Origin: Alphaproteobacteria bacterium | GTDB lineage: Bacteria; Pseudomonadota; Alphaproteobacteria; JABAAW01 | Length of the DNA: 64,000 bases | Assembly: GCA_965216605.1 (NCBI GenBank) | Contig: CBDCGG010000002.1 | Location: 239,645-303,644, forward strand | Reading direction: 5' to 3' | Shown: positions 6,019 through 59,864 of the stretch, piece by piece | Layout of the letters: the number at the start of each line of letters is the position of its first letter | How positions within the stretch are numbered: the first letter of the stretch is position 1 | The notes under the pieces: model-generated | What the model was told of the DNA's origin: nothing | Databases searched by the model: none | What the model saw: only the letters and a program-made list of their open reading frames with translations | Position numbers and translations under genes: made by a program

Positions 6019-6705
6019 GTGTCGCAAGGTGTGTCAAATGTTTTTCCCGCAGCAGAGCAACGGAGGTCGCCATCGCTATCGCCATCACCGATTCTCGCTC
6101 CTGCCGAGGCTGTGGTGGAGGCACGCAAGGTTGCCGAGGGGTGTCGGACGCTCGAAGAGCTCGAGCTTGCGGTGCGAGCCTTCGCTCTCTGTTCGTTGAA
6201 AGAGGGCGCGCGCAACACGGTCTTCGCCGAGGGCAATCCCAACGCCGAGCTAGTCGTCGTCGGCGAAGCGCCGGGGCGCGAGGAAGACGAACAGGGAAAA
6301 CCCTTCGTAGGCGAGAGCGGACAACTGCTTTCGCGCATGCTCCATGCGATCGGCATCGCTAGCCGCGAGCAATACCGCGTTACCAATTTGGTCTATTGGC
6401 GCCCACCGGGCAATCGTCAGCCGAGCTTGGACGAGATCGCCGTCTGCTACCCCTTCTTTCTGCGTCACATGGCGCTTGTGAAACCGCGTTGGCTTTTGTT
6501 GCTGGGCAATGTTGCGATGCAAAATGTTCTCTCTGAGCGAAGGGGGATCACGAAGCTACGCGGACAATTATTTCCGATCACGCTGGGGGCAACGCCTGTT
6601 GTGGCATTGCCCTCCTTTCATCCCTCCTACCTGCTGCGCACGCCCGTAAAGAAGGCGGCGGCGTGGCACGATCTACTAATGTTGCGACGCGCTATGAATA
6701 AATGA
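6019..6705 (+). CDS. uracil-DNA glycosylase family 4 catalytic core (likely the 3' part of a frameshifted longer gene starting about 5762)
   Basis: RNTVFAEGNPNAELVVVGEAPGREEDEQGKPFVGESGQLLSRML...VYWRPPGNRQP...LPSFHPSYLLR are the family-4 UDG signature blocks. The ORF 5762-6199 in another frame encodes an LL.W..EAG.D-type N-terminal segment typical of alphaproteobacterial family-4 UDGs, so a frameshift is inferred near 5950-6020. Confidence 0.75.
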   Translation: MSQGVSNVFPAAEQRRSPSLSPSPILAPAEAVVEARKVAEGCRTLEELELAVRAFALCSLKEGARNTVFAEGNPNAELVVVGEAPGREEDEQGKPFVGESGQLLSRMLHAIGIASREQYRVTNLVYWRPPGNRQPSLDEIAVCYPFFLRHMALVKPRWLLLLGNVAMQNVLSERRGITKLRGQLFPITLGATPVVALPSFHPSYLLRTPVKKAAAWHDLLMLRRAMNK

Positions 6706-6773
6706 TTTTGGAATAAGTGATTTTGGAATAAATGATTTTGGAATAAGTTATTTTGGAATAAGTGATTTTGGCA
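6701..6773. repeat. AT-rich 15-bp tandem repeat (aaNtgattttggaata), about 4.8 copies, between udg stop and thrC start
   Basis: Seen directly: aatgattttggaata / agtgattttggaata / aatgattttggaata / agttattttggaata / agtgattttgg. Confidence 0.9.
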
Positions 6774-6898
6774 GGTTGCATCGCACCCTAGAAAAGAGTA
6801 GAATGGTGCGAAGAAATAATATAAGCATGATACCTGATGGGGGGATTTATCCCCGACATGATCCACGACAAACACAACAACACGAGCGAGTTTGCAGC

Positions 6899-9322
6899 AT
6901 GAACTACATGCACTACAAATCCACGCGCGGGGGCGAGAAAAAAACCTTCGCGGATATTCTCAGTAGCGGTCTTGCTGCGGACGGCGGTCTGTACGAGCCT
7001 ACGAGTTGGCCGCACCACCGACGGCTACGAAGTTTCTTAGCGAGCGGCCCCACCTTCCCTGAGGTCGTGGGAGCGGTTGTGGGCGTTTTCGCCGGACGGC
7101 GCAGTTTGACGCATCTTGATTTTACGGCGATTGCTCGCAAGGCCTTTGAACCTTTTCACAGCCGCGCTGTCGTGCCTCTGCGCGAGGTGGAGCATAATCT
7201 TTGGCTGCTCGAACTTTTTCACGGACCGACGCTCTCGTTCAAGGATATTCCGTTGCAATTCTACGGACAGCTTCTGGAAGCCCTTGCGTCCGAGAGGAAA
7301 CGGCTGCTGATTATGATCGGCGCAACATCGGGCGACACGGGCTCTGCCGCCATCGAGGCGATGAAACCCGTTCGCGGCGTGCGATTGTTCATGCTGCATC
7401 CGAAGGATCGTATCTCTGCGTTGCAGCGCAAGCAAATGACAAGCGTCCAATCCCCGAACATCTGCAACATCGCCGTCGAGGGCAGCTACGACGATTGCCT
7501 CCGTCTGGTCAAGGCGGCGGCGCAATCGGAGGCGATCAACGCGCGCGGACAGGTCTCGGCGGTCAACTCTTTCAATTGGATTCGCATTGCCGTGCAAAGC
7601 GCTATCTACCTCTACGCAGCCCAACAGATTCCGCGACGCGCCAAGTCGGTGCGCTTTGCGCTCGCCAGCGGCAACTTCGGCAACGCTTACGCCGGCTATG
7701 TTGCCAAAAAGCTGGGTGCGAACATCGAGGGTCTTACGCTCGCGGTCAGTCACAACGACTTCCTGCATAACCTTTTTCAACAAGGCTCTGCTGCAAGCGG
7801 CGAGGTCGTCCCCAGCCTTGCGCCCAGCATCGACATCATGACGCCGAACAACGTCGAGCGATTGCTCTTCCGCAGCCTTGGCGACAGCGCGCGCCAATGG
7901 AGCAAGGTGCGCGAACAAGCGGAAGAAAGCGGGACGCTCCGCGTGCCGAAAGGCGCGTTGCGTTCGGAGATCTTTCGCTTTTTCCGCACGCAACGTTTCG
8001 ACGACGAGCAAATTCTCGAAGCAATGAGCCAAGCCTACGACAGCGTCGGAGAACCCCTTGACCCCCATTCTGCCATTGCGCTCAAGGCGGCAAAGGATGC
8101 GAGCTTCGAGAAGGAAAAGCAGGCGAAAAAGAAAAAGGCGCACGATATGTGCACCATCGCCCTTGCCACTGCTTCTGCGGCGAAGTTTCCTGAGACGGTG
8201 GAGCGCGCGATCGGGGCAAGACCGCACATGCCCTTGAGGCTTGCCGAGCTCGAGACGAGGGCGGAGGAGTACGAGACAATCGCTGCCGACTTCGAGGCGC
8301 TAGAAAGCATTATTGTTGCGCGATTGCAAAAACCTCTCGATTCGGACGCAAGTGTTCAGGATGCAAGTGTTCAGGATGCAAGCGTTCAGGCGGCAAGCGT
8401 TCAGGCCGCAAGCGTTCAGGAACCTGCAAGCGTTCAGGATGCAAGCGTTCAACCTGCGGAGGGACTTGCCGCAACCGCTGCGGGCTCGGCGACAATTGCC
8501 GAGGACGCTGTGGCAAGCGAAACAGCGTTAGAGGTAGCGCAAGAGGACGAGGAGAAGCGCGAGGAGGGAGAGGACGAAAATTTGGCAGGAATGCCCGAAA
8601 AGATGTCCGAGGCGAATCTTGCCATGGGTACTGCATCCGCCCTCTTCTCTTCGGTACAGCCTCCAGAGATGCCTGCTGTAGCTGCGTTGACGGATGAGGA
8701 AGATTCGTTAGAGAAGAAGATCGCCAAACTGAAAGAACAGACGGCGCAACTCGACGAGAGTCTCGACGATCCTATGACTGCTGCTTCCTCGTCTTTGACG
8801 AGCGATCCTTTCGCCGCTCCTTCCGCCGCAGATTTCTCAGCCACCTCTAGCTTGGAGGACACGCCGAGGGAGAGCGATCCTTTTGCGACACCCCTCCCCT
8901 CTCAGCAAGAAGACGAAACGCAAGAAGACGAGCAGACAGATTTCTCTGCAGAAATAGGAACGACAGAAACAGAAACGACGATGGAAACGATGGGAAGCGA
9001 CGGCGGCGATGATGGCATGGTTTCGTTGGCTGACGCGGCGGAGCAGGGGCAGGCATCGTTGCAAGAGAAGATCGCCAAGTTGAAAGAGCAGAGCGAGAAG
9101 CTTGATGAGGTAGCGGAGACGCCATACTCGCCTTTCGAGGAAGCAAAGGAGGAGACGAGCGAGATCGTTGGGGCAGAGAATTTCTTCTCTCAACCTGCGC
9201 CTCCATCTCAAAATGAGGCTGTCGAATCGAGCGAAACATCTTCTACGGCATCTTCTACGACACCCTCTACGACACCTTCTTGGGAAACACCTCTGGCGGA
9301 AGATCAGGAAGAAAAAACTTAA
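6899..9322 (+). CDS. thrC: threonine synthase (ThrC) fused in-frame to about 330 aa of acidic, repeat-rich low-complexity C-terminal tail
   Basis: MNYMHYKSTRGGEKKTFADILSSGLAADGGLYEP... is the ThrC N-terminal signature. The PLP fold continues to about residue 470 (..SAAKFPETV..). The frame then stays open through (DASVQ)x7, a duplicated KIAKLKEQ(T/S)xxLDE block and a long D/E/S/T-rich region to the stop at 9322. Confidence 0.8.
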   Translation: MNYMHYKSTRGGEKKTFADILSSGLAADGGLYEPTSWPHHRRLRSFLASGPTFPEVVGAVVGVFAGRRSLTHLDFTAIARKAFEPFHSRAVVPLREVEHNLWLLELFHGPTLSFKDIPLQFYGQLLEALASERKRLLIMIGATSGDTGSAAIEAMKPVRGVRLFMLHPKDRISALQRKQMTSVQSPNICNIAVEGSYDDCLRLVKAAAQSEAINARGQVSAVNSFNWIRIAVQSAIYLYAAQQIPRRAKSVRFALASGNFGNAYAGYVAKKLGANIEGLTLAVSHNDFLHNLFQQGSAASGEVVPSLAPSIDIMTPNNVERLLFRSLGDSARQWSKVREQAEESGTLRVPKGALRSEIFRFFRTQRFDDEQILEAMSQAYDSVGEPLDPHSAIALKAAKDASFEKEKQAKKKKAHDMCTIALATASAAKFPETVERAIGARPHMPLRLAELETRAEEYETIAADFEALESIIVARLQKPLDSDASVQDASVQDASVQAASVQAASVQEPASVQDASVQPAEGLAATAAGSATIAEDAVASETALEVAQEDEEKREEGEDENLAGMPEKMSEANLAMGTASALFSSVQPPEMPAVAALTDEEDSLEKKIAKLKEQTAQLDESLDDPMTAASSSLTSDPFAAPSAADFSATSSLEDTPRESDPFATPLPSQQEDETQEDEQTDFSAEIGTTETETTMETMGSDGGDDGMVSLADAAEQGQASLQEKIAKLKEQSEKLDEVAETPYSPFEEAKEETSEIVGAENFFSQPAPPSQNEAVESSETSSTASSTTPSTTPSWETPLAEDQEEKT
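8345..8452 (+). repeat. 15-bp in-frame tandem repeat x7 (gaYgcaagYgttcag, encoding DASVQ) inside the thrC tail
   Basis: Seen directly in sequence. Confidence 0.9.
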
Positions 9323-9350
9323 GCCCTTTGATTGACGAATGCAAAACATC

Positions 9351-9404
9351 GCGTGCGTAGCGCGCGTTCGTTTACTCGTCAAAACGCGAGTCCCGTTTTT
9401 TTGG
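9351..9404 (+). repeat. partial copy (3' end) of the dispersed hairpin-rich element (see 42612-42858), directly after the thrC stop; ends in CCCGTTTTTTT
   Basis: gcgtgcgtagcgcgcgttcgtttactcgtcaaaacgcgagtcccgtttttttgg aligns to the 3' end of copy A (gcgcgcaagcgcgcgttcgtttacgcgtcaatgcgcgagtcccgttttttgg). Confidence 0.7.
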
Positions 9405-9457
9405 ACACTGCCGCTATCTGTTACAAAGTTAAAAAGCGATCAAAGCGATCAAAGCAA

Positions 9458-12391
9458 TCAAGCCGCCCAGTTCTCCCCAATCCGATAGTCCACCTCCAAA
9501 ACAACCGACAACATCTGTTGCGGCTCAGCGGCGCGTTGCATAATCTCCTGAACAGCCCGCGCACTCGCCTCCGCTGTCCCCCGCGGTGCCTCCAAAACAA
9601 TCTCGTCATGAACCTGCAAAAGCATGCGCGTGCCATACAAAGCATGCGTCTTCTGCCCCAAAGCGCGGTGAATGCGAATCATCGCCTGCTTGACAATGTC
9701 CGCCGCCGTTCCCTGTATCGGCGCGTTGATCGCCTGCCGCTCAGCATGCAAACGCATGTTCTGCTTGCGATCAGCAATCAAAGGTAGGTGAATCTTCCTG
9801 CCAAACAATGTTTCGACATAACCCCGCTTACGACAAAGCTCGACGGTTTTCGCACGATAGTCTCTGAGCTGAGGGTAACGAGCAAAGTAGAGGGCAATCA
9901 AATCCTGCGCCTCCGCCTCGCCTATACCCAACTGCTTCGACAAGCCAAAGCGCGAGATGCCATAAAGCAATCCGAAGTTCACCGCCTTGGCAGCCCGACG
10001 CTGCTCCTTAGATATTTCTTGAGAAACTTTTTTTCCTTTTGCGCCAAACATTTCCTCTGCGGTTGCCTGATGGATATCGCGTCCTTCTGCGAAGCTTTCC
10101 AACATACCCTCGACGGAGGCGATGGCGGCGACGAGGCGCAGTTCTATCTGCGAATAATCCAACGACACTAAAGCGAATCCCTTCTCTGCGATGAATGCAC
10201 TGCGGATGCCGCGCCCTTCCTCGTTGCGCACGGGAATGTTTTGCAAGTTCGGCTCGGAGGAAGCGAGCCGTCCCGTCTGCGCGCCGCTCAAAGAAAATGA
10301 GGTGTGGATGCGTCCCGTCGCCACTTGCACCTCGCGCGGTAGTGCCTCGGTATAGGTCGAGCGCAACTTCGAGATATGCCGCCATTGCAAGACCTGTTCT
10401 GCGATCTCGTGTCCCTGCTCTGCCAAACCCTCCAAAACACGGCTGTCGGTCGCATACTGCCCGCTCGGTGTCTTCTTAGCTCCCTTCAGCTTGAGACGCT
10501 CGAACAGCACTTCTCCCAACTGCTTCGGCGACGAGAGCAAAAAATCTCCTCCTGCCAAGGCGACGATCTGTTTTTCTAACGCGCTTGTCTGCTTTTCAAA
10601 GCGCGCGCTCAAAGCTTGCAAGACATCCACATCGATCAGCACTCCGCAGCGTTCCATAGCGACGATCACCGGAATCAGAGGACGCTCCAAAGTCTCGTAG
10701 ACCTGCTTACCGCCCTCGTGCAGCAGACGCGGAGAAAAAATTTCGTGCAAGCGTAGCGTAGCCCAAGCGTCCTCTGCGGCGTAAGCGCTCGCCGCCTCGA
10801 TCGAAACGCGATCGAAGCAGACCGCCTTGCGCCCTGTGCCGACGATCTCCTTGTAGCGCGTCAAGCGATGCTGCGCATGCTTATCTACGAGCAGGTCCAA
10901 GCCGTGTCCATGCTTACCGCCGTCAAGCACCGCCGACATCAGCAGCGTATCGTCGCAAGGTGTTATTTCTAGTGCGTATTTTTGCAAGATCGCTGCGTCG
11001 AATTTCAAATTATGTCCGACCTTGAGCGTCGCGCGATCTTCCAACAGAGGCTTCAAGACAGCCAAAGCTTCGTCGAGCGCGATCTGCTGCTCTAATAAAT
11101 TTCCGTCAGCATCGCGATGCGCCAACGGCAGATAGGCAGCGCGCTTGCTTACAGAAGAGTCCGCAGAATAGTCCGCAGAATATTCTATGCACATTGCAAC
11201 GCCGACTAGTTCTGCCGCGATGATATTCAACCCCGTCGTCTCGACATCGATCGCTAGGCAACCTTGCTCTCGTGCTTTGTTGCAAAAATCTTCTAAGGCT
11301 TTTTTATCGCGCAAGGTCTCGATACTGTGGGGAGGGCTTTGTGCCTCGCCCTCCTTGCCCTGCTCACCCTGCTCGCCCTGCTCGCCCTGCTCACCCTGCT
11401 GTGCGTGGAGCAGGCTGTTCAAGCCCTGCTTATATTGCGCTTGGTGCGAATCCAAGTCGCGTACTAATGAGCGAAACTCCTGTTGTTGGAAGAAGGCGCG
11501 CAGCTTCTCGCGTTCGGGACGCGGAGCTTCTAGTGTCTCCAAGGAGAGCGGACAGGGCGCGTCGTCGGCAAGGGATACCAAGTTATAACTTAGGCGCGCT
11601 TGCTCTGCGTGTTGTTGCAACGCCTCGCGCCGTTTAGGCTGAGTGATCTCTGCTGTCCTTGCCAATAAGGACTCCAGGTCTCCGAAGCGCTGGATGAGCT
11701 CGGCTGCGGTTTTGACCCCGATGCCCGGCACGCCCGGCACATTGTCGCTGCTGTCGCCTGCGAGTGCCATTACATCGCGTACTTTGTTCGGCGGCACGCC
11801 GAATCGTTGCTGTACGGAAGCCTCGTCGATGACGACTCCCTTGACGGGGTCGCGCAAGAACAGCTGTCCGTCTTCGACGAGCTGCATCATGTCTTTGTCG
11901 GAAGAGCACACCTCGACGCGCCAGCCCTTGTCGCGCGCCAAGCGAGCGTAGAGGGCGATGAGGTCGTCCGCCTCGAAGCCTTGCTGCTCTACATTAGGCA
12001 TGGAGAAGGCTTCGGCTGCCGCGCGCACGAGGGGAAATTGCGCCTTGAGTTCAGGCGGTGTCTCGCTGCGGTTCGCCTTGTAGGCGGGGTAGAGCGTGTT
12101 GCGAAAGCTCTTGCCCTTGGCATCGAAGACGACGAGGAAACGTTGCTGCGGACGCTCCCGCAACAGCTGCGCGAGCATGCGCGTAAATCCGTAGAGCGCG
12201 CCTACGGGCGTACCGTCCGCGCGCGCCATCGGCGGCAGGGCGAAGAAGGCGCGAAAGACATAGCCGTAGGCATCGATCAGCGTCAAATCCGATGCGGGTT
12301 GCGTCGGCGGAGTTTGTGGCTGCGAGGATTGTGGCTGCGAAGTTTGCGTCTGCGAGTTGTCGCCGCGTGGGCTTGGCTGTTCTGCCACCAA
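9458..12391 (-). CDS. polA: DNA polymerase I (PolA)
   Basis: 977 aa with 5'-3' exonuclease N-terminus (LIDAYGYVFRAFFALP), 3'-5' exonuclease and Klenow polymerase motifs (RRAAKAVNFGLLYGIS, LLQVHDEIVLE). Contains an in-frame (GEQ)x4 repeat insertion and a Q/P/S/T-rich N-terminal extension. Confidence 0.9.
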   Translation of the reverse strand: MVAEQPSPRGDNSQTQTSQPQSSQPQTPPTQPASDLTLIDAYGYVFRAFFALPPMARADGTPVGALYGFTRMLAQLLRERPQQRFLVVFDAKGKSFRNTLYPAYKANRSETPPELKAQFPLVRAAAEAFSMPNVEQQGFEADDLIALYARLARDKGWRVEVCSSDKDMMQLVEDGQLFLRDPVKGVVIDEASVQQRFGVPPNKVRDVMALAGDSSDNVPGVPGIGVKTAAELIQRFGDLESLLARTAEITQPKRREALQQHAEQARLSYNLVSLADDAPCPLSLETLEAPRPEREKLRAFFQQQEFRSLVRDLDSHQAQYKQGLNSLLHAQQGEQGEQGEQGEQGKEGEAQSPPHSIETLRDKKALEDFCNKAREQGCLAIDVETTGLNIIAAELVGVAMCIEYSADYSADSSVSKRAAYLPLAHRDADGNLLEQQIALDEALAVLKPLLEDRATLKVGHNLKFDAAILQKYALEITPCDDTLLMSAVLDGGKHGHGLDLLVDKHAQHRLTRYKEIVGTGRKAVCFDRVSIEAASAYAAEDAWATLRLHEIFSPRLLHEGGKQVYETLERPLIPVIVAMERCGVLIDVDVLQALSARFEKQTSALEKQIVALAGGDFLLSSPKQLGEVLFERLKLKGAKKTPSGQYATDSRVLEGLAEQGHEIAEQVLQWRHISKLRSTYTEALPREVQVATGRIHTSFSLSGAQTGRLASSEPNLQNIPVRNEEGRGIRSAFIAEKGFALVSLDYSQIELRLVAAIASVEGMLESFAEGRDIHQATAEEMFGAKGKKVSQEISKEQRRAAKAVNFGLLYGISRFGLSKQLGIGEAEAQDLIALYFARYPQLRDYRAKTVELCRKRGYVETLFGRKIHLPLIADRKQNMRLHAERQAINAPIQGTAADIVKQAMIRIHRALGQKTHALYGTRMLLQVHDEIVLEAPRGTAEASARAVQEIMQRAAEPQQMLSVVLEVDYRIGENWAA

Positions 12392-26411: not shown

Positions 26412-27971
26412 TCAAGTTTTAGTTTTAAAAGGGATACCAATGTATCGGTCGCGCTTGCCTTGCAAGTCGGAAACCCTCAACAACACAACTTTACGCCCCG
26501 CCTTCTTCGCCTTCGTCAAGATTCGTCCTGCCGCCTCGACGGATGCAACCTTTACACCATTGATCTCTCGAATGACATTCCCGCGCTGCAAACCCTTCTC
26601 GGCAGCCTCGATGCCCGCCTTCACAATGACGAGCCCCTCAAGCGAGCGCGGAACCTTGTTGTGCGAGCGCACCGCCGCGGTCAATTCTATGACATCGACC
26701 TCGATCAAAGACAAGGATGCCGCCTTCACCTGCTTATCCGTAACAATGCCGTTGCGAGAATCTTCTGTCTTTCCTCCCCCCCCTTTACTTCCTCCGCGCG
26801 TACTGGCAAGCCGCTGCTCGCTCTGTCGCGCCACTTTCAGCGACAAGACAAGTCGCTTGCCTGCGCGCAAAACCTCGACGGGCACTGTCTTGCCGATCGG
26901 CGTTTGGGCTACCATCCACGGCAGGCGATCGTTGCGCGTCACCTTTTTGCGATTGTAAGAAACGATCACATCTCCGTTTTGCAAGCCTGCGCGCGCTGCG
27001 GGACTTTTGGGAGCAATACCTGAAACGATTACTCCCGCTGGCTTTCTAGAGCCCTTCCATCCCAAGCCTGCTGCGATATCTTCTGTGACGGGCTGGAAGG
27101 CGATTCCCATCCATGCGCGTTGCGCTTCTCCGTACTGACCTAGTTGCTCTACGATTGTGCGCGCGACAAGCGATGGAATTGCGAAGCCGATTCCGATCGA
27201 TCCTCCGCTGGGCGAGACGATCGCTGTGTTGATGCCGATCACGCGCCCGGAGAGGTCAAACAGGGGACCTCCTGAGTTGCCGCGATTGATCGGCGCGTCT
27301 GTCTGAATAAAGTCGTCGTAGGGACCTGCGCGAATATCGCGTCCGCGTGCGGAGACGATTCCTGCGGTCACGCTGCCACCGAATCCCAGCGGGTTGCCGA
27401 TCGCCATGACCCAATCTCCGACGCGCGTCCTGTCCGAATCGCCCCACGACACGGCGGGCAGACTTTTGTTGTGCTTTACGCGCAACAGCGCCAGATCGGT
27501 TTGCACATCTTTACCGACCACTTCTGCCGCCAGTTTTGTTCCGTCTTGTAGTACGACGACGATGCTCTCTGCCTTGTCGATCACATGGTTGTTGGTGACG
27601 ATCAGCCCTTTGGCATCGATCACGAAGCCCGACCCTTGCGAACGAGTGCGTCTTCGTTGTTGCGAGCCACCTTTTTCTTTTTGTCCTTGTTGCTCGCGGA
27701 ATTGTCGAAAGAGTTCTTCCAGTTGCGACCCTGGCGGAGCGCGAAACTCGAACTTCAAACCGCTACGCCGCTTGCTTTCGCTGACGGGGTGGCGCGCCTG
27801 AATATTGACGACGGACGGCGAGAGCTTTTCGGCGAGGTCGGCGAAGGAGTTCGGGCTAGAGCGCGCGTCCGCCGTTGCGACAACGCCGCACGAAAGCAGG
27901 AGCAGAGAGAAAATCGCAACCGCAGGCACATTTGCCGACAGCACACGCGAGAGGGATGACATACTAAACAA
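26412..27971 (-). CDS. degP: periplasmic serine endoprotease DegP/HtrA family (Do protease, two PDZ domains)
   Basis: Signal peptide; catalytic blocks GSGFVIDAKGLIVTNNHV, GNSGGPLFDLSGRVIGINTAI; two PDZ-like regions. Confidence 0.9.
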   Translation of the reverse strand: MFSMSSLSRVLSANVPAVAIFSLLLLSCGVVATADARSSPNSFADLAEKLSPSVVNIQARHPVSESKRRSGLKFEFRAPPGSQLEELFRQFREQQGQKEKGGSQQRRRTRSQGSGFVIDAKGLIVTNNHVIDKAESIVVVLQDGTKLAAEVVGKDVQTDLALLRVKHNKSLPAVSWGDSDRTRVGDWVMAIGNPLGFGGSVTAGIVSARGRDIRAGPYDDFIQTDAPINRGNSGGPLFDLSGRVIGINTAIVSPSGGSIGIGFAIPSLVARTIVEQLGQYGEAQRAWMGIAFQPVTEDIAAGLGWKGSRKPAGVIVSGIAPKSPAARAGLQNGDVIVSYNRKKVTRNDRLPWMVAQTPIGKTVPVEVLRAGKRLVLSLKVARQSEQRLASTRGGSKGGGGKTEDSRNGIVTDKQVKAASLSLIEVDVIELTAAVRSHNKVPRSLEGLVIVKAGIEAAEKGLQRGNVIREINGVKVASVEAAGRILTKAKKAGRKVVLLRVSDLQGKRDRYIGIPFKTKT

Positions 27972-28046
27972 GGAAGAGACGAGGAAAAATAAAGTGAGCG
28001 TTGAATTAGATACTGTCTACAATATGGTATTTTTCTTTCTTAAAGC

Positions 28047-28094
28047 AAGGTTTTTCGCAAAATTTTTCACAAGGTTTTTCACAAGATTTTTTTG
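28047..28094. repeat. AT-rich 12-bp tandem repeat x4 (aaggtttttcac-like) upstream of the mttB-family gene
   Basis: aaggtttttcgc / aaaatttttcac / aaggtttttcac / aagatttttttg, seen directly. Confidence 0.85.
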
Positions 28095-28183
28095 TGTGAA
28101 AAAATAAATTGCGATAGAGGCAAAAAAAGATAAGAATACCACGCAAGAACGACATAACAAAATGACATAGCAGGGAGGTTGTT

Positions 28184-29764
28184 GTGATGGCGCAAGAAAC
28201 AGCAAATATTTCTACGGATATTTCTTCGGAACGTCGTCGTGGCGGCGGTCGCGAGGGTCGTCGCGCGCTCCGTGCGCAAGCGGCGGTTGATCGTCGCGAT
28301 ACGGCGGCGGCGTATATCAAGCGCGGCATGCCTGTCTACAACTACTTCAGCGAGGAGCAGCTCGATCGTATTTGCCAAAACGGCGCGAAGATTCTGAAGG
28401 ACATCGGCTTGGAGTTTCGTGAGGATGAGGAATCGCTCGCCCTGTGGAGGCAAGCGGGAGCAAAGGTGGAGGGCGAGCGCGTGCGTTGCGACGAATCCAC
28501 GCTGTTGGATATCGTCAAGAGCGTTCCTTCTCAATTCACGCTACATGCGCGCAATCCGAAACGCTCGGTACAGATCGGCGGGGATGCGACGGTGTTTTTG
28601 CCTACTTATGGACCTCCGTTTGTGCGCTCGCTGAAGGAGGGACGACGCTATGGGACGATCGAGGACTTCCGTAATTTTTCCAAGTTGACCTACTTGTCGC
28701 CCGCGCTGCACCACAACGGCGGCACGCTGTGCGAGCCGACCGATCTTCCCGTCAACAAGCGACACTTGGAGATGCTATACAGCCACGCGCGCTACTCGGA
28801 CAAGGGCTTTCTCGGCTCGGTGACCGCGCCTGAACGAGCGCAAGATTCCGTCGATTTTGCCAAAATCATCTTCGGCGAGGAGTTCACAGACAACAACGCC
28901 GTCATCAGCGCGATCATCAATGTCAACTCGCCGCTCGTCTTCGACAACACGATGACGGGCGCGCTGAAGGTCTATGCGCGGGCTAACCAGCCTTGCATCG
29001 TCTCTCCCTTCATCTTGTCGGGAGCAATGGGCCCCGTCACTGTGGCAGGCACGCTTTCGCAAATCTACGCCGAGAGCCTGCTAGGCGCAGCCCTTGTACA
29101 GCTCTACCGCAAGGGAGCACCACACATCATGGGAACATTTGCAACTTCGCTTTCGATGCTTTCAGGCGCGCCTTGTTTTGGAACTGCCGAATCCAGCATG
29201 GTGCAACTCGGCTGTGGGCAGCTCGCGCGCAGGTTGGGCTTTCCGTTGCGCTCTAGCGGAGCTTTGTGTGGCTCTAAGATCATGGACGCGCAGGCAGCTT
29301 ACGAATCGGCGATCTCTATGCAAACGAATCTGTTTGCGGGCAACAATGTTGTCATGCATACGGCGGGATGGCTGGAGGGAGGCTTAGTGATGGACTACGA
29401 GAAATTTGTATTGGACGCAGATCAGGCTATGGCTTTTGTCAGGTTGGCGACGCCGCCTGAAACGGACGAGAACCAACTGGCTTTCGATGCGCTGCAGGAG
29501 GTCGGACCGGGCGGACACTACTTGGGCTGCGCGCACACGCAAGCCAACTTCGAGACTGCCTTCCACAACTCGCCTTTTGTCGACAACGAGTCCTTCGAGC
29601 GATGGAAAGCTGAGGGAGAAAAAGACATGGTGGCGCGCGCTGCAGAAAAGGTCGAGAAGATGTTGAACGAGTACGAAGCACCGCCTATCGACGAGGCGCT
29701 TGATGAAAACCTGCTCGACTTCATAAAGCGGCGTAAGGAGTCCATGCCCGATGCGTGGATCTAG
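28184..29764 (+). CDS. MttB-superfamily (trimethylamine/glycine-betaine:corrinoid) methyltransferase, non-pyrrolysine type
   Basis: 526 aa. N-terminal region (YNYFSEEQLDRICQNGAKILKDIGLEF.EDEESLALWRQAGAKVEG.RVR) is characteristic of COG5598 MttB-family proteins. No in-frame amber codon. Confidence 0.7.
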   Translation: MMAQETANISTDISSERRRGGGREGRRALRAQAAVDRRDTAAAYIKRGMPVYNYFSEEQLDRICQNGAKILKDIGLEFREDEESLALWRQAGAKVEGERVRCDESTLLDIVKSVPSQFTLHARNPKRSVQIGGDATVFLPTYGPPFVRSLKEGRRYGTIEDFRNFSKLTYLSPALHHNGGTLCEPTDLPVNKRHLEMLYSHARYSDKGFLGSVTAPERAQDSVDFAKIIFGEEFTDNNAVISAIINVNSPLVFDNTMTGALKVYARANQPCIVSPFILSGAMGPVTVAGTLSQIYAESLLGAALVQLYRKGAPHIMGTFATSLSMLSGAPCFGTAESSMVQLGCGQLARRLGFPLRSSGALCGSKIMDAQAAYESAISMQTNLFAGNNVVMHTAGWLEGGLVMDYEKFVLDADQAMAFVRLATPPETDENQLAFDALQEVGPGGHYLGCAHTQANFETAFHNSPFVDNESFERWKAEGEKDMVARAAEKVEKMLNEYEAPPIDEALDENLLDFIKRRKESMPDAWI

Positions 29765-29770
29765 TCAAAA

Positions 29771-30277
29771 TTGCCTGCTGCGTTCTTGAGCCTTTTTGCT
29801 TTTTGCGCGCGGATTATTTTAACGACGATGGCGGATATTTCTTCTGACAAGAACTTGTGGCGACGCTTGTGCGTTTCGTTGCGCGCGTGGGTTATCGATC
29901 ATTGGCGCGGAGATTTATCGCTTGTCGAGTCTTTTTGGATCAACTGTTTTTTCGTAAACTTGGGAGCGGGCATTGTATTGCGTCGCCTTGCGCCTTCGCC
30001 AGCGGGCGTGATGGTGTTCGGCGTGTTGTCGGTGGGGATTTCTGTGTGGCAGTTGGTGGGCTTGTGGCGATCGGCGCACAAGAACAGCAAGAAGCAGCCG
30101 TTTTGGTCGGCGATTGTGAAGGGAGTGTGCGTGATGAATGTTGTCGTTTTTGTGATGGTGATGCTGGCGGTGTTGTTCGGCGACTTCGGAGGGGGGGGAA
30201 TCAATTTGCCTGCCGATTTGCCTGCCGATTTGCCTGCCGATTTACCTGGGCAGAGCATACCGAGCGGCTTTCTTTAA
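29771..30277 (+). CDS. hypothetical small integral membrane protein with C-terminal (LPAD)x4 repeat
   Basis: Three predicted hydrophobic segments. C-terminus NLPADLPADLPADLPG encoded by a 12-bp tandem repeat x4. Real start may be the internal Met at 29828. Confidence 0.45.
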   Translation: MPAAFLSLFAFCARIILTTMADISSDKNLWRRLCVSLRAWVIDHWRGDLSLVESFWINCFFVNLGAGIVLRRLAPSPAGVMVFGVLSVGISVWQLVGLWRSAHKNSKKQPFWSAIVKGVCVMNVVVFVMVMLAVLFGDFGGGGINLPADLPADLPADLPGQSIPSGFL

Positions 30278-30377
30278 ACTTGAGCCAAAATTTACTCAAG
30301 ATTTGACGAAGATTTTTTTACACCAAGCCTTGACGAGGGGAAACAGAGGTGCTAGAAAGCCCTCTTGTCGTGCTGTA

Positions 30378-30490
30378 GGGCTGAAGTTGGGGGGCTGAAG
30401 TTGGGGGGCTGAGCTTGGGGGAGCTGAAGTTGGGGGCTAGAGAGGGCATAGGGGGATGCAGGGGGAAAATGGGGGATACAAATGGGGGAA
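30378..30490 (+). repeat. G-tract-rich tandem array (gggctgaagttgggg x about 4, then GGGGG every 10-12 bp) upstream of the OMP-like gene
   Basis: Seen directly; at least 9 runs of G4-G6 on the plus strand within about 110 bp. Confidence 0.85.
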
Positions 30491-30542
30491 CAATCGTTTT
30501 TTACAAACAACAACATCAACATCACACAAGGAGTTTCTTCTG

Positions 30543-31289
30543 ATGAGAAAAGGAATTATTGTTGCCCTCGCCACGCTGGCGATGGGTTTGACGGGCTTGT
30601 TTGCGTCTCCTGCGAAGGGGCTGCAGTTTGGCTTTAATGCGGGTTATAGCTCGGTGGGCTTTCAGTTGCATGGCATGGGCGGAGAGCTTCTGTTCGGCTT
30701 TCAGGGCAAGGACGAGCATCGTCCTGAAGGCTCGGTGCTACGCATCGGCTTGGCGGGTGCTTCAGGAGAGGGCGAGACCGACCTCACAAAAGCAAAATGG
30801 GGCGGGGTGAGCTTCAATAATTTCATCATCGGAACAGCCGCTCAAGCTTTGGGAGGACTGGCGGGATTTGCTCAGTTGCCTGCTGCGCAACAACAAGGAG
30901 CAATCGCAGGAGCGCTAGCGGGCATCGAGGGAGGTCTTACACAAGCCGGCATCAGCGATCTTACAAAAGCCAAGGGTGTTGGCAATGCCTTCCTTCTCTC
31001 GGCGGCGTATGAGTATGTGTTGCCGCAAGGTGTGCCGGGGCTGGGCTTCATCGTCGGCGGCGAGCTGTATGTTTCGCAAGGGAGCCTCGTAGGTGAATCG
31101 ACCGATGGAGGCATCGGGGGAGGCGGTGTTGTTGGCATCAGCTACTACACGAAGAACGGCTTGAACTTCACTTTCAAGACCGGACTCGGTGTCGTCGATC
31201 CCGGAGAAGTGACTGTGACTAACGTGAAGGTCGAGCCTGAGGCGAAGTTCTACGCCAGCCCGAGTTTCTCGATCGGCTTCATTCACTAG
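30543..31289 (+). CDS. secreted Gly-rich hypothetical protein, possibly outer-membrane beta-barrel
   Basis: AAGGAG RBS 10 nt upstream. Signal peptide MRKGIIVALATLAMGLTGLFASPA. Gly/Ala-rich with alternating aromatic/hydrophobic stretches, internal DLTKAK duplicate, aromatic C-terminus ...FSIGFIH. Confidence 0.5.
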   Translation: MRKGIIVALATLAMGLTGLFASPAKGLQFGFNAGYSSVGFQLHGMGGELLFGFQGKDEHRPEGSVLRIGLAGASGEGETDLTKAKWGGVSFNNFIIGTAAQALGGLAGFAQLPAAQQQGAIAGALAGIEGGLTQAGISDLTKAKGVGNAFLLSAAYEYVLPQGVPGLGFIVGGELYVSQGSLVGESTDGGIGGGGVVGISYYTKNGLNFTFKTGLGVVDPGEVTVTNVKVEPEAKFYASPSFSIGFIH

Positions 31290-31307
31290 TTCCCTTTAAC
31301 AAAATTG

Positions 31308-31347
31308 AGGACGCGGGCTTTCATTGCTCGCGTCCTCTTTTTTTTGC
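31308..31347 (+). terminator. rho-independent terminator
   Basis: GAGGACGCG-ggctttcattgct-CGCGTCCTC followed by TTTTTTTT. Confidence 0.65.
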
Positions 31348-31386
31348 TTGCGGATTGGCGCAGATTAAGTTTAGGATTAGCGTGTT

Positions 31387-31665
31387 ATGCGTTCTTTGAT
31401 CGAGTTAGTGTTGTTGCTGTTGCGTTTGTACGGCTGGTGTCTGATTGCGGTTGCGATCATGAGTTGGATGTTGGCGTTTGGCGTTATCAACGCTTACTCG
31501 CCTGTGGTGCGCTCGCTTTTGGAGATTTTGTATCGATTGACCGAGCCACTCTTGCGTCCGATAAGGCGTATTATTCCGTCGGTTGCGGGGGTTGATTTCT
31601 CGCCGGTGATTGCTCTGCTGGGCTTGTGGTTTGTCGGGCAGTTGATTAGGGAATATCTGCTTTAG
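31387..31665 (+). CDS. yggT: YggT-family membrane protein
   Basis: 92 aa; LLLLRLYGWCLIAVAIMSW...EPLLRPIRRIIPSVAGVDFSPVIALLGL matches YggT/Ycf19. Confidence 0.8.
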   Translation: MRSLIELVLLLLRLYGWCLIAVAIMSWMLAFGVINAYSPVVRSLLEILYRLTEPLLRPIRRIIPSVAGVDFSPVIALLGLWFVGQLIREYLL

Positions 31666-31703
31666 AGAGGGGGAGTGTGTTCGGGGGGTATCTTTAAACG
31701 ACG

Positions 31704-32739
31704 ATGAGCGAAAAGAAGCAGAGGATCGATCCTATTCGGCGGGTACGCGGGATGCAGGATTTTCTGCCTGAGCGCGCGGCGGGGATGCGCAGGATTGCGC
31801 GGATTGCGGAGGATGTTGCGAGGCTGTACGGATTCGAGCGCATAGAGATTCCTATATTAGAGAGGGCAAGTTTGTATCGGAGGTCGTTGGGTTTAGGGAG
31901 CGATGTTGTGATGAAGGAGATGTATGCCTTTGAGGATAAAAAAGACAAGAATGACAATAGCGAGGAGTTATGTTTGCGTCCTGAGGGGACGGCGGGGGTG
32001 ATGCGGATGTTGATCGAGAACGGATTGACGCAGACGCTACCGCAGCGATGGTTTTACGAAGGGGCGATGTTTCGTAGGGAGCGTCCGCAGAAAGGACGAT
32101 TTCGCCAATTTCACCAGTGCGGCGTGGAGTTTTTGACTACTCACTACGATTTCATAACAGTCGACTTAGAGGTATTGAAATGCGCTTGGCATTTTTTGAA
32201 AGAATTAGGATTAGCAAAACAAGGATACTTAAATTCAATTGGCTTGGAACAATTGAGGAAAGAGCGCAATACAACATATTGCTTACGCAACACTTTCAAG
32301 AATATAGAACGATGCTCTTTGCTAGAGAGTGTTGAACGCTTCAACGAGGTCAACGCCTTGCGCATTTTTGATTCTAAAGACCCAAGACCAAGAGGCGATT
32401 GAAAACGCACCAGACTTTGAATTAAACGAAACATCAAAAGAAAATATTAAAACAATAAAAAGCTGGTTAACAGAACATTTAAACATACCTTATGAATCGA
32501 TTCTAGCTTGTGCGCGGATTGGATTATTACAGCAACCTTGTTACGAATTTGTTGAAAAAGGATCGACACGCGAACAAGCAACGCTGTTAGCGGGGGGGCG
32601 GTACAATGGCTTGTGCGAACAAATTAGCGGACGCGCTGACAACCCCCCTTTGACGGGCGTGGGCTGGGCAGCAGGATTGGAACGTTTGCTTAATTTATCT
32701 TCATTGTCGAGTAATTTTAATTCAGAGATAAAAATATAA
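31704..32739 (+). pseudogene. hisS: histidyl-tRNA synthetase (hisS), compositionally chimeric, frameshifted and 3'-degraded
   Basis: First frame (31704-32402): HisRS motif 1 and motif 2 (FRRERPQKGRFRQFHQCGVEFL). GC drops from about 60% to about 35% near 32150 inside the gene. Second frame (32329-32739) continues HisRS (..GGRYNGLCEQISG..PLTGVGWAAGLERL) after a frameshift. The anticodon-binding domain is not intact; only stop-interrupted remnants lie in the AT-rich DNA that follows. Confidence 0.6.
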
Positions 32740-33355
32740 AAATTTGTCTTTCTGATTCTATTGTTCCGATATTTGCAAATAAAATTCCTCTGTAAGCAAA
32801 AGAGTTTATGATTGAAAATTTTAGAAACAAATTACATTTTAAAATTCTTAAAAATAATAAAAATATTGTTCTTGTTCTTCTTAAAATGTCAAATATCATT
32901 ACGCTCAAAATGATTACAGAAAAAATAGAAGAAAATTCAAATTTTCTTATTGTTAGATCTATAAGTAGCGATAAGGAAAAATGATGACTTTACATTGTAT
33001 AATATTAAAAAAAGAGATCAAAGCATTATGTTGAGCGTTTGCAGACTTAATTTTATTGATCAATTAAACAAAGAACTAAAAGATTTCATTCAAGAAGAAA
33101 ATCTATAACCCCCTGATGGAAAAACAATTCTATCGGCATGGTGGGCGTTCGTGTGATGCATGCATCCAAGTCATGACACTTGGCGGATTAAAACATGCGT
33201 ATAGGCACGACGATAAGCAGTATGATCTGCCAAGTCGGGAATAAATTCCCCCGCCATGCCGAATCTACATGCATCCTATAAGCATCTCCCGCGTCGGTAA
33301 GAAAAAGGTTGGTTATTAATTTATTTGCTTTTTTGTTAAATTAAGTTATTGTATT
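32150..33355. other. AT-rich (about 30-38% GC) island in an otherwise about 60% GC region, containing the degraded hisS 3' end
   Basis: Compositional discontinuity seen directly. Short stop-interrupted reading frames with HisRS anticodon-domain-like residues (e.g. 32808-32981 MIENFRNKLHFKILKNNKNIVLVLL...). No intact ORF. Confidence 0.6.
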
Positions 33356-33359
33356 AACT

Positions 33360-34520
33360 ATGAGTACACAAGACGAGTTCTGGCGCGAGCGATTCGCAAC
33401 CTCCCTCCGTCAAGAGGAAACAACCCAACTCGCCCTAAACAATCCCACAATCCCTAATGCCGAGCGCGTAACCCTCGCAAAAACACTCGCATCCCTAACC
33501 CCCCTTTGTAACGAAATCCGCTCCTACAATAATCTAACCCAACAAAAAACCTCCGCCCAAAACCTCCTCGCCGAAGAACCAGATTTGGATAAAGCGCTCA
33601 AATCCCTCGCCTCAGAAGAAATTATAACCCTAGAAAAACAACGCACCGCCATCCTAGACAATATTCAAACCCTCATGCTCGACTCATCGGAGGAAGAAAT
33701 AAATACCGCCATCCTAGAAATTAGACCCGGTACAGGCGGCGAGGAAGCCGCCCTCTTCGCAGCCGACCTCCTATCTATGTACCAACGATACTCCGCAAAT
33801 AATTCCTACAAGTTCGAGGCTATCTCCATACAACAAACCCAACAAGGCGGTATCAAAGAAGCCATCGCTACCATCGAAGGACCCCGCGCCTTCACAAGAC
33901 TCTCGGTAGAATCAGGCGTGCATCGCGTCCAACGAATCCCCGAAACCGAAACACAAGGCAGGATCCATACCTCCGCCGCAACCGTCGCCATCCTACCGCA
34001 AACCTCAGAAGTACAACACCCCCTCCTAGAACAAGACCTCCGAACAGAAACCTTCCGCGCACAAGGCGCAGGAGGACAGCATGTCAATACAACCGACTCC
34101 GCCGTGCGTATAACCCATATACCCTCAGGACAAGTCGTACAATGCCAAGACGAAAAATCTCAACACCGAAACCGCGAAAAAGCACTCAAAGTTCTCACCG
34201 CACGAGTGCAACAACATATCCAAGATTCACAAAATGCCGAACGCTCCGCAACACGCAATTCACAAATAGGTAGTGGTGATCGCTCAGAGCGAATCCGTAC
34301 TTATAACTTTCCGCAAAACCGAATCACCGACCACCGCATCTCCCTCACCCTCTATAAACTCGATCGCATCATGCAAGGCGACGGGTTGGAGCTACTACTC
34401 AATCCCCTCGAAGCCGCCCGAAAATCCGAGCGCATAACCCAACTCCAAGAACAAAGCCCCCTGCCAAAAACCTCCCCCTCTCCCAACAAGCAAGCAAACA
34501 AAAAAAATGCCTCGCCTTGA
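33360..34520 (+). CDS. prfA: peptide chain release factor 1 (PrfA)
   Basis: GGQ motif (FRAQGAGGQHVNTTDSAVRITHIPSG), PxT-type decoding region, RF-1 length. Coding strand is strongly C+A-rich. Confidence 0.9.
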   Translation: MSTQDEFWRERFATSLRQEETTQLALNNPTIPNAERVTLAKTLASLTPLCNEIRSYNNLTQQKTSAQNLLAEEPDLDKALKSLASEEIITLEKQRTAILDNIQTLMLDSSEEEINTAILEIRPGTGGEEAALFAADLLSMYQRYSANNSYKFEAISIQQTQQGGIKEAIATIEGPRAFTRLSVESGVHRVQRIPETETQGRIHTSAATVAILPQTSEVQHPLLEQDLRTETFRAQGAGGQHVNTTDSAVRITHIPSGQVVQCQDEKSQHRNREKALKVLTARVQQHIQDSQNAERSATRNSQIGSGDRSERIRTYNFPQNRITDHRISLTLYKLDRIMQGDGLELLLNPLEAARKSERITQLQEQSPLPKTSPSPNKQANKKNASP

Positions 34521-35482
34521 GCTCAACAAACTCCGCGAACCTCATAAACTCCGCGACCTCCGCGACCTTCATAAAAATTGGCTACTTCGTCTGAAAGATG
34601 CCCACCTAGAAGATCCCCAAGCAGAACTCAACGCGCTGTGGCGAACAATAACAAACGATCCGCTACCCCTGCTCGCTTGCTCTGAAATCACCCCGCGCCT
34701 CGCACAACGCCTGACGCATCTAGTCGAACGCCGAGCCGCGCGCGAACCCCTTGCCCGAATCACCAAGCAGCGCGAGTTCGCCTCCCTGCCCTTCCATCTC
34801 AACAAAGCCTGCCTCATACCCAGAGCCGACAGCGAAACGCTACTAGAAGCTGTCCTTCATCTCACCGCCTCCCCGCACCCCGTTCGCACCATCCGAGAAC
34901 TGGGTTGCGGCAGCGGATGCATCGTCCTCGCCCTCGCTGCAAACCTCTGCGACAAACCTCAACGCCCCGCCCTGCAAGCCTGCGACATCTCCGCCCAAGC
35001 CCTCGTCGCCGCCCGCCTTAACGCACAAAGCCTACAAAAAAAACTTCCCGTCCAATTCTTTCGACAAAACTGGAGCGATAAAAAACATCGCGCAAAAAAT
35101 AACGCAAAAGAGATAACGGAAGAGCAACGGAAGAGATAACGGAAGAGATAACAGAAGATATCGAAGAAACCAACTCGACCTGCTCTTCGCCAATCCCCCC
35201 TACATTCGCCGCTTTGAGCGCATCATGCTCTCGCGCGAAGTTTCCCGCTTCGATCCACCGCTCGCGCTGGACGGCGGCTTCGATGGCATGCGCTCCTTTC
35301 GACACATCCTTCGCTACGCGCAACAAACTTTGCGCTGCGGAGGCTTTCTGCTGCTCGAACACGCCCCCGACCAAACGCGCATGCTCAAACCCCTCGCGCA
35401 ACGAAAACAATTCCGATACCTCCGAACGCTCAAAGATCTGGCAGGCAGGGACAGAGTCTCCGTTTTCAGAAAGCACTCCTAA
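34507..35482 (+). pseudogene. prmC: release factor glutamine methyltransferase PrmC/HemK, split by a frameshift inside a 12-bp tandem repeat
   Basis: Frame 1 (34507-35139) has the SAM-binding region (ELGCGSGCIVLALA). Frame 2 (about 35177-35482) has DLLFANPPYI...LDGG.DG. The shift falls inside cggaagagataa x about 5 at 35101-35160. Either a pseudogene or an assembly error in the repeat. Confidence 0.6.
35101..35160 (+). repeat. 12-bp tandem repeat (cggaagagataa-like) x about 5 inside prmC
   Basis: Seen directly; introduces TAA stops in one frame. Confidence 0.85.
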
Positions 35483-35590
35483 CAAAAAATCCTAACAAAA
35501 AGTCCTTGGCAAAAAATCCTTGCTTGATGCTCCCGCCTCGCCTATCCTAGTTTTAATAATTCCTCCCTTTGCACGAGCCCCTAAATATCC

Positions 35591-56254: not shown

Positions 56255-56305
56255 GGCAGGTTTTTATTGGCTGTTGGTCTTGTCATTTTTTCCGTGCAGA
56301 GAAGG

Positions 56306-56425
56306 GACGGCAACGCCCTACTCTTCCACGCCACGAGGACGCAGTACCATCGGCGCAGGAGGCTTTCACGTTCGAGTTCGGAAAGGGATCGGGTGTTGAG
56401 CCCTCCGCTATGATCGCCGCCCCGT
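56306..56425 (-). rRNA. rrf: 5S ribosomal RNA
   Basis: Reverse complement ...GGCGGCGATCATAGCGGAGGGCTCAACACCCGATCCCTTTCCGAACTCGAACGTGAAAGCCTCCTGCGCCGATGGTACTGCGTCCTCGTGGCGTGGAAGAGTAGGGCGTTGCCGTC matches the 5S consensus (CCGAACTC.GAAGTGAAAC, GCGCCGATGGTA, GAGAGTAGG). Confidence 0.85.
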
Positions 56426-56563
56426 CACTGCACGGAGATAAAGTATAAATTTTTTGCGACAAATTTGTCGTTTTTTGTTTTGAGAACGCTTTTCAATTTG
56501 AATTTCTGTCACAGCACTATCTATGGGCTGAGGCGCTGCTTGCGTTTTGTCGATGCAAAGAGC

Positions 56564-59410
<2,847 letters not shown>

Positions 59411-59760
59411 GCTCTTTGCTGACAATTCGCAAGCAGCGCCTCAACTCATAGAGGGCTGCTGTTGACAGAAATTGTGCGTTCTTTCCGATTTCACAAAACT
59501 CCGTGCGCAACACGCCGACAGAGCCAGAAAATCGAATTCTTACAAACGATGGACTTGTTCAATAGTTCCCCCCCGAAACGCCTCTCGTATTGCAAATACA
59601 AGCAGCGCGAAGCCCATAATAGCCGAGCCAGTACTAGAGCGCAAGATAAAAAGCACAAAAAACGCCTCAACGATAAAAAAACATGCAAGCGAAAATTTTC
59701 CCATCCTCCCCTCTTTTGCTCCCCTCTTTGTGCGCCTTGCCTCAAAGCAACTTGCGTAGA

Positions 59761-59841: not shown

Positions 59842-59864
59842 TCTGTCCGTCGGCAATCATTTCA

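Follow-up and report, generated by a model that had tools for sequence, protein, structure and literature searches.

The hisS gene, encoding histidyl-tRNA synthetase (HisRS), in the window analyzed here (64,000 nt of contig CBDCGG010000002.1, assembly GCA_965216605.1, from an alphaproteobacterium of the JABAAW01 lineage; all coordinates are positions in this window) raises the question of how one gene came to combine a GC-rich 5' part with an AT-rich and frameshifted remainder. The sequence-only reading of this DNA had taken the change in base composition (GC, guanine plus cytosine) as a hallmark of recombination with foreign low-GC DNA or of an assembly chimera, and had described the gene as decaying into a noncoding island. 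We propose instead that hisS is a two-part gene made of a conserved N-terminal part (N-part) and a recombining AT-rich cassette, and that the cassette is broken in this window; we give this account a probability of roughly 0.6.

On recomputation, the jump in composition within the gene was reproduced, the GC content falling from 54% to 33% directly after class II motif 2. The N-part (31704-32123 on the plus strand), which carries class II motifs 1 and 2, ends at the residues QFHQCG (32106-32123) and is free of lesions, has a GC content of 0.538 and a GC content at third codon positions (GC3) of 0.64, versus a GC content of 0.334 for 32124-33108. The cassette, on the same strand, comprises a frameshifted first part (32124-32700) with the insertion domain, the histidine-binding motifs and motif 3, and a second part (32701-33108), which is the remnant of a diverged C-terminal domain and ends with the stop codon TAA at 33106-33108; the GC content is 0.412 in the former, the catalytic remainder, and 0.223 in the latter. 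The mean GC content of the window is 0.555, with a standard deviation of 0.057 across 200-nt intervals. Position 32001-33000 is the lowest-GC kilobase (0.372) among the 64 one-kb intervals, and the minimum among the 200-nt intervals, 0.20, lies at 32700-32900; the other 200-nt intervals below 0.40 form runs of 200-350 nt at about 3551-3800, 6651-6900, 27901-28250 and 60451-60650. As a control, 75 hisS genes from other bacteria were split at the same motif. In these genes the GC content of the N-part minus that of the rest was 0.003 +/- 0.017 with a maximum of 0.038, against 0.20 here, which makes the jump exceptional.

The low-GC DNA encodes HisRS homology up to its end. The open reading frame (ORF) 31704-32402 matches positions 1-145 of the 308 positions of the Pfam profile tRNA-synt_His (E = 3.8e-21), and the frame-corrected 3' part matches positions 127-308 (E = 1.4e-5). 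With a frameshift-aware protein-to-DNA alignment written for this analysis and run against intact orthologues of 449-486 aa, the region 31704-33108 is homologous end to end to the intact orthologue P0132 (484 aa), with 310 of 492 positions identical. The RGLDYY and GGRYDGL-type motifs and motif 3 are recognizable at 32507-32530, 32593-32613 and 32662-32688, respectively. What had been called a noncoding AT-rich island is in fact the 3' end of the gene: 32740-33108 aligns with the C-terminal domain of intact orthologues of 484-486 aa and reaches a shared stop codon followed by CCCCC (33106-33113). Insertion of a mobile element was rejected, as the low-GC DNA is collinear with HisRS throughout. 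Four further ORFs that overlap the gene, 32144-32437, 32717-32908 and 31694-31957 on the minus strand and 32117-32335 on the plus strand, had no Pfam match and were dismissed as chance.

The C-terminal domain of HisRS in this clade is only 0.06-0.22 identical to normal anticodon-binding domains, and the Pfam profile HGTP_anticodon gave no match in the window or in the intact clade proteins. An AlphaFold2 model of the intact P0132 (predicted local distance difference test score 86, predicted template modeling score 0.79) has a predicted alpha/beta C-terminal domain and aligns over 460-470 columns with the solved structures of full-length HisRS 1adj, 4e51 and 1kmm, with Foldseek E-values of about 1e-33 for 1adj and 4e51. 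Judged from this model, the intact relatives appear to be functional HisRS enzymes, although unusual ones.

To place the break among relatives, we compared the loci L001-L006, L083-L086, L167 and L168, which come from related metagenome-assembled genomes (MAGs) and from ENA metagenome assemblies. The nearest relatives of the window are the uncultured alphaproteobacterial MAGs OZ244186.1, JABACB01, JABAAW01 and JABABG01; genomes of JABAAW01 have been attributed to Vazella and Haliclona sponges (PMC13393909). In every related locus fetched, yggT, hisS and prfA come in this order, and prmC is usually next. In seven intact orthologues (432-484 aa), the N-part has a GC content of 0.53-0.58 (GC3 0.58-0.64) and the rest 0.32-0.39 (GC3 0.26-0.37), and the switch falls at the same codon, right after QFHQCG. 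In three further intact loci (L086, L167 and L168), the sequence comparison shows the same highly divergent segment past motif 2. The orthologues that carry the break span different samples, and both short-read assemblies (SPAdes-style NODE contigs) and long-read assemblies. Because the same break recurs across samples and assembly types, the composition jump is, on this comparison of loci, inherited within this clade as a feature of the gene. Metagenome contigs of the Joint Genome Institute (JGI) were scanned twice, first using the corrected cassette and then the N-part as query; neither scan returned a clade member, the best identity being 54%.

The recurrence of the break bears directly on the suspected chimera, in which a misjoin at about 32150 would have attached foreign low-GC DNA to the 5' end of hisS in this assembly only. 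Such a join would account for the abrupt change in composition at about 32125-32150, but the same junction, at the same codon, recurs in intact hisS genes from nine further assemblies, which differ in sample and assembler, and there both sides are collinear with orthologous hisS. Moreover, the low-GC part in the window is collinear HisRS through to the stop codon, and the spacer and prfA beyond it match close relatives at 77-98%. We regard a chimera as hardly credible.

The segment past motif 2 is hypervariable. Between L003 and L084, identity is 98-100% in the 6 kb on either side and in the initial 400 nt of hisS, drops just past motif 2 to 56-84% in most 60-nt intervals as far as the stop codon, and is back at 0.87-0.98 in the spacer. 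The flanks of L086 are 98% identical to those of L003 and L084, and its cassette only 53-72%; over the three loci together, identity is 98-100% in the flanks and 53-82% in the cassette. A second species-level group, L167, L168 and L083 from the sample ERZ25069837, shows the same behavior, with flanks 92-97% and cassettes 51-86% identical. In the window, identity to L003 and L084 is at 0.77-0.92 again immediately past the hisS stop codon. Across 12 clade proteins, the N-parts are 81-98% identical in amino-acid sequence and no pair of cassettes is more than 70% identical; a homology search with the corrected cassette of the window found no allele above 52% amino-acid identity.

Neighbor-joining (NJ) trees were calculated for the upstream 2.6 kb, the downstream 2.4 kb, the N-part and the cassette, so that the reference for the flanks is about 5 kb of local sequence and not a genome or ribosomal tree. 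The upstream, downstream and N-part trees agree, grouping L003, L084 and L086, then the window, then L004 and L083, with L085 as the outgroup. In the cassette tree, the window, L086 and L083 form one class (class A) and L003, L084 and L004 another (class B). The two classes are 0.65-0.73 apart (Jukes-Cantor distance), as far as either is from the outgroup, and both are found in both species-level groups. The distances for flank and cassette, respectively, are 0.01 and 0.33 between L003 and L084, 0.23 and 0.31 between L003 and L004, 0.01 and 0.66 between L003 and L086, and 0.10 and 0.32 between the window and L086. Similarly, the synonymous divergence (dS) between L003 and L084 is 0.59 in the cassette versus 0.085 in prfA, and that between L003 and L004 is 0.67 in the cassette, matching the background of 0.74-0.84. 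Because the cassette distance does not scale with the flank distance, these data point to the import of alleles rather than to clock-like hypermutation, and we read the pattern as the signature of allele replacement by recombination. The sample ERZ25069837 holds at least four related genomes of the clade (L001, L083, L167 and L168), at coverages of 117x, 58x, 18x and 9x, and these genomes carry different hisS cassette classes.

The same measurements speak to the idea that the cassette is a local mutational hot spot, which would diverge in place by AT-biased hypermutation and indels without recombination between lineages. A high local mutation rate would be expected to yield AT-richness, extreme divergence between near-identical strains and frameshifting in two lineages, as seen here. 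It would not explain why the distance in the cassette fails to follow that in the flanks, or why both allele classes recur in two species-level groups. The ratio of nonsynonymous to synonymous divergence (dN/dS) is also 0.3-0.5 and not 1, and neither a reverse transcriptase nor a template repeat was noticed close to the locus, though no systematic search was made for either. We consider in-place hypermutation very improbable. In detail, dN/dS is 0.27-0.50 in the cassette, 0.03-0.15 in the N-part (0.03-0.07 for the N-part of the window versus L086 and L083) and about 0.15-0.2 in prfA. Since its dN/dS is 0.27-0.50, the cassette is under relaxed but real purifying selection; an average below 1 neither shows nor excludes diversifying selection.

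As to the source of the low-GC part, the best named matches outside the clade are alphaproteobacterial HisRS for N-part and cassette queries alike, from Acidocella, Acetobacter, Acidisoma, Roseomonas, Acetobacteraceae, Rhodospirillaceae and Stellaceae. In an alignment of 55 sequences, the clade is 0.46-0.57 identical to named outgroups in the N-part (Ignavibacteria apart) and 0.39-0.49 in the catalytic remainder; no outgroup stands out, and the drop in identity from N-part to core resembles that of ordinary HisRS pairs. The two halves searched separately thus have the same outgroup affinity, and no donor lineage is detectable, which argues against recombination with foreign low-GC DNA. Of the hallmark proposed in the sequence-only reading, the recombination holds up, between alleles within the clade, and the foreign donor does not.

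An older event could still lie behind the composition, namely a single acquisition, at the base of the clade, of the 3' two-thirds of hisS from a low-GC donor by recombination within the gene, with the low GC content as a relic. The break is sharp and old, being common to a group with 56% GC and a group with 48% GC (L005 and L085), and GC3 falls from about 0.6 to about 0.3, beyond what amino-acid constraint alone explains. Lateral transfer is also common among aminoacyl-tRNA synthetase (aaRS) genes (PMC3191353). On the other side, there is no donor signal, the catalytic part of the cassette being about as far from every named outgroup as the N-part is, and the named best matches of both halves are Alphaproteobacteria. 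A relic composition should moreover have ameliorated over a dS of more than 0.7 unless something maintains the AT-richness, and the GC content within the cassette tracks constraint, rising to 0.5-0.57 at motif 3. We judge such an acquisition unlikely; it would, however, leave the same pattern today as the emergence of AT-richness in place that we suggest below.

In the account that we favor, the first 140 codons, with motifs 1 and 2, are GC-rich, strongly constrained and inherited together with the flanks. The cassette after motif 2 exists as many deeply diverged allele types, which would be replaced by homologous recombination between related strains and species that occur together. One crossover would fall in the conserved N-part, which is 81-95% identical in nucleotide sequence across the clade, and the other at the 3' terminus of hisS; donors would be at hand, because several related lineages coexist in one sample (ERZ25069837). 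The AT-richness would arise in situ, from AT-biased mutation that goes uncountered where constraint is weak. Amino-acid constraint alone cannot explain it, because GC3 halves; whatever holds the genome at 56% GC, be it selection or biased gene conversion, may be ineffective in the cassette, with alleles too diverged for heteroduplex formation. The window carries a class-A cassette, which as assembled has gained at least 7-10 small, frame-disrupting deletions.

These lesions were mapped by the frameshift-aware alignment, which requires seven frame changes and two stop codons against P0132 and ten frame changes against P0242. The frameshift sites lie at about 32214, 32306-32317, 32385, 32488-32506, 32540, 32725, 32784-32813 and 32973-32982. 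A single frameshift near 32330-32400 had been described earlier; the frameshifting is borne out, and the count was too low. In a DNA alignment to L083, which carries the P0132 gene, there are 14 gaps, every one of them a deletion in the window, mostly outside homopolymers, with sizes of 1, 4, 1, 2, 1, 1, 1, 1, 4, 2, 39, 2, 6 and 3 nt; the 39-nt deletion, in the second part of the cassette, is in-frame relative to L083. Three 1-nt deletions within 46 nt shift LVRGLDYY (32507-32530) out of the reading frame. Neither the histidine-binding motifs nor motif 3 share the frame of the N-part, from which at least four frame changes separate them, and the frames of LVRGLDYY and GGRYNGL differ from each other. 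As these frame changes separate motifs 1 and 2 from the later motifs, hisS as assembled cannot encode HisRS, in agreement with the earlier suspicion of a pseudogene. Both stop codons in the alignment adjoin deletions and are by-products of the frame changes, so that there is no clear nonsense substitution. All lesions are located past 32200 and none in the N-part, where about five would be expected per lineage at the rate of the cassette; we do not rely on this shortfall, because indel rates are probably far higher in the AT-rich part.

Several ways of saving the reading frame, or of attributing its loss to a wider cause, were examined and rejected. Reassignment of UGA or another stop codon fails because read-through of the TGA at 32400 meets more stops and the HisRS homology continues in another frame. 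Programmed frameshifting or transcriptional slippage would have to act at too many sites, and these are not placed at slippery or homopolymer motifs. A uniformly error-prone assembly is excluded by the long intact ORFs over the rest of the window, and general erosion of the genome is not supported by the 64-kb neighborhood, which is without other split genes, prmC aside in both cases: among candidate adjacent ORF pairs in the window, none besides prmC proved to be a split gene. Four HisRS queries matched only the known locus within the 64-kb window and no second hisS.

Whether the organism itself has lost the gene is a narrower question. We lean slightly towards a real and very recent inactivation of hisS in this genome, as suggested by the deletion pattern. 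The deletions are mostly outside homopolymers, and three of them fall in the best-conserved stretch of the cassette, where the alleles of different strains agree. The remaining 63 kb is clean, with long uninterrupted ORFs, and other long-read contigs, at 7x and 18x, have intact AT-rich cassettes. These four points also weigh against the competing explanation, in which the frameshifts are assembly or polishing errors, hisS is intact in the organism, and the consensus was built from mixed alleles or from few uncorrected long reads.

That explanation nevertheless has a substantial chance of being correct, somewhat short of even, and much of what supports it weighs against our account. First, the cassette, once corrected for frame, looks like a functional allele: its dN/dS is 0.37 versus 0.34-0.50 for intact pairs, and its branch length of 0.16 equals that of L086 (0.16), so that a pseudogene could only be very recent. 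Second, every lesion is a deletion, and a clear nonsense substitution is absent from the cassette. Third, the span of the lesions coincides exactly with the hypervariable segment, as would be seen in a consensus of mixed or thinly covered variants, and the neighboring genes are clean except for one lesion in a tandem repeat of prmC; strains with flanks 98-99% identical diverge by 25-40% in the cassette, and several related strains coexist in one sample at the coverages given above. Fourth, the only other broken copy, that of L001 (ERZ25069837 ctg28032), is on a 9x long-read contig. It has ten frameshifts and one stop codon, all past the N-part, and its contig has further single frameshifts in prfA, in an outer-membrane-like gene and in a 503-aa ORF. 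At last, hisS is normally an essential, single-copy gene, and the neighboring 64 kb is without any sign of general erosion. The exact 232-aa product of ORF 31704-32402 is on record once, from the same contig.

If the inactivation is real, its most likely history would be a very recent loss of the resident hisS in a cell with another source of HisRS. The probable candidate for this source would be a second hisS at another place in the 1.63-Mb genome, gained by a route of addition followed by loss. A further-reaching version of the account, which we rate as quite unlikely, holds that balancing or negative frequency-dependent selection keeps a trans-species HisRS cassette diverse in the sponge holobiont, that the cassette is exchanged among co-resident sister lineages and that some members have lost hisS. 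Selection might then come from an inhibitor, a natural product or a toxin, with its binding site in the insertion domain or the anticodon-binding domain. Members without hisS (such as this genome and L001) would depend on an acquired second copy or, conceivably, on relatives living alongside them, and the clustered deletions would be the scar of an abortive recombination between diverged alleles and not the outcome of slow decay.

The closest parallel is found in the homeoalleles of aaRS genes, described by Andam, Gogarten and co-workers for TyrRS in Bacteria and for ThrRS, SerRS and LeuRS in Archaea (PMC3191353, PMC3436685). As in those cases, deeply diverged forms occupy one syntenic slot (here yggT-hisS-prfA), presumably with the same function, and their distribution conflicts with the phylogeny of the carriers, which appears here as the conflict of the cassette tree with the flank and N-part trees. 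Intact ORFs, conserved catalytic motifs and a dN/dS below 1 hint that the cassette forms may share one function. Replacement of homeoalleles via conserved flanks, or by addition and then loss, has been documented in other aaRS genes (PMC3191353). The hisS cassette differs from these systems as follows: First, the unit is part of a gene, with the left crossover inside hisS, and the N-part of 140 codons stays with the flanks. Second, there are not two forms but many alleles, of which 12 were sampled, none more than 70% identical to another. Third, strains whose flanks are 98-99% identical already differ in the cassette, and so do genomes of a single sample. At last, the exchanged part is compositionally distinct, with GC3 halved.

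Other likenesses are partial. Segmentally variable or mosaic genes and hypervariable loci of low GC content, such as those for O-antigen and capsule, have a sharply bounded, variable, low-GC segment between conserved anchors, with allele classes common to several lineages and turnover by recombination in the anchors. The hisS cassette is likewise bounded, low in GC, recombining and present as classes across lineages; unlike the products of such genes and loci, which have surface or restriction-specificity functions and are exposed to frequency-dependent selection, HisRS is a cytoplasmic enzyme with an essential housekeeping role. In host-associated bacteria, pseudogenes decay with a deletional bias through many small deletions and are AT-rich. 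The hisS of the window also has many small deletions, no insertions and a high AT content, but lacks the excess of substitutions, the rise in dN/dS and the nonsense mutations of pseudogene decay, and its lesions stop at the edge of the cassette, with intact neighbors. Finally, lateral transfer of HisRS and co-evolution with tRNA-His, including loss of the G-1 identity element, are said to have occurred in some Alphaproteobacteria (Ardell and Andersson in 2006 and Wang et al. in 2007, reportedly). That case resembles ours in having an unusual, divergent HisRS and differs from it in being the history of a whole gene. The gene for tRNA-His is not within the 64-kb window.

The exchange of aaRS forms is known for whole genes over deep time, and here it would concern an intragenic segment of an essential gene. 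The cassette would thereby offer a compact natural system for the interplay of composition, constraint and recombination, bearing on whether the loss of gene conversion lets AT-biased mutation win and on selection on HisRS in the sponge microbiome. In practical terms, a jump in GC content within a gene does not have to mean a chimera, and strain-variable cassettes are where a metagenome consensus, and the pseudogene calls that follow from it, are least trustworthy. If the inactivation were real and there were no second hisS, a 1.6-Mb bacterium without HisRS would be remarkable.

The cassette is framed by regions that follow the phylogeny of the genome. On the left is yggT (31387-31665, plus strand; Pfam YGGT, E = 5.3e-21), and on the right are the true hisS-prfA spacer (33109-33359, plus strand; GC 0.42), where this phylogeny is tracked again, and prfA, encoding release factor 1 (33360-34520, plus strand), which is intact (Pfam PCRF, E = 2.2e-55; RF-1, E = 8.4e-40). 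A conserved motif lies directly 3' of the hisS stop codon (33103-33125 in the window; TAA followed by CCCCCTGAYAGAAAAA in close relatives). It is also present in L003, L004, L083, L084, L086 and L002, is recognizable in distant relatives and is kept although the preceding cassette is hypervariable; a role in regulation or as an anchor for recombination is conceivable. The spacer further contains inverted repeats with 13-nt arms at 33133-33145 and 33250-33262 and 11-nt arms at 33178-33188 and 33225-33235. The 36-nt segment between the inner arms is inverted in L086 (at about 7520-7600) relative to the window, L003 and L084, as either a small invertible segment or a flip of a hairpin loop.

The prmC gene (34507-35494, plus strand) has a single frameshift at about 35116, located by frameshift-aware alignment to PrmC of L084. 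The site is in or next to a lineage-variable insertion rich in lysine and arginine, with 12-nt tandem repeats (GGAAGAGATAAC, 35129-35152), and the catalytic NPPY part downstream of it is well conserved; therefore, the frameshift would be very recent, repeat-mediated or an assembly error. prmC is retained in the window, L003, L084, L086, L167 and L085, and is absent 3' of prfA in L083 (about 8900-9700) and L168 (about 8600-9800), which have small minus-strand ORFs without Pfam matches instead. One relative, L002 (ENA ERZ26869290 ctg265852, 8586 bp), contains serial inverted copies of the locus (the outer-membrane-like gene, yggT and hisS), in which hisS is complete twice and twice present only as a truncated or frameshifted 5' end. 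The contig has the appearance of a fold-back or amplification artifact, a real palindromic amplification being the alternative.

Across 29800-35000, neighboring genes on the same strand show strong and opposite base skews. The GC skew is +0.2 to +0.5, with T exceeding A, in yggT, the hisS N-part and an upstream membrane-protein gene, and -0.2 to -0.5, with A exceeding T, in prfA and prmC; the sign flips at the hisS-prfA spacer. These skews probably reflect amino-acid composition. Elsewhere in the window, 23S and 5S rRNA genes are located at 56305-59411 on the minus strand. Upstream of the 23S gene, over the 4.6 kb at 59412-64000, no 16S rRNA, tRNA-Ile or tRNA-Ala gene was found, and the rRNA operon therefore appears to be unlinked. 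The region 3604-4528 has a locally low GC content of 0.45-0.49, with 200-nt intervals down to 0.37, and holds an ORF without Pfam matches and, after it, one resembling the HicA toxin (4226-4528; E = 3.4e-10). The region may represent a small, acquired island of the toxin-antitoxin kind.

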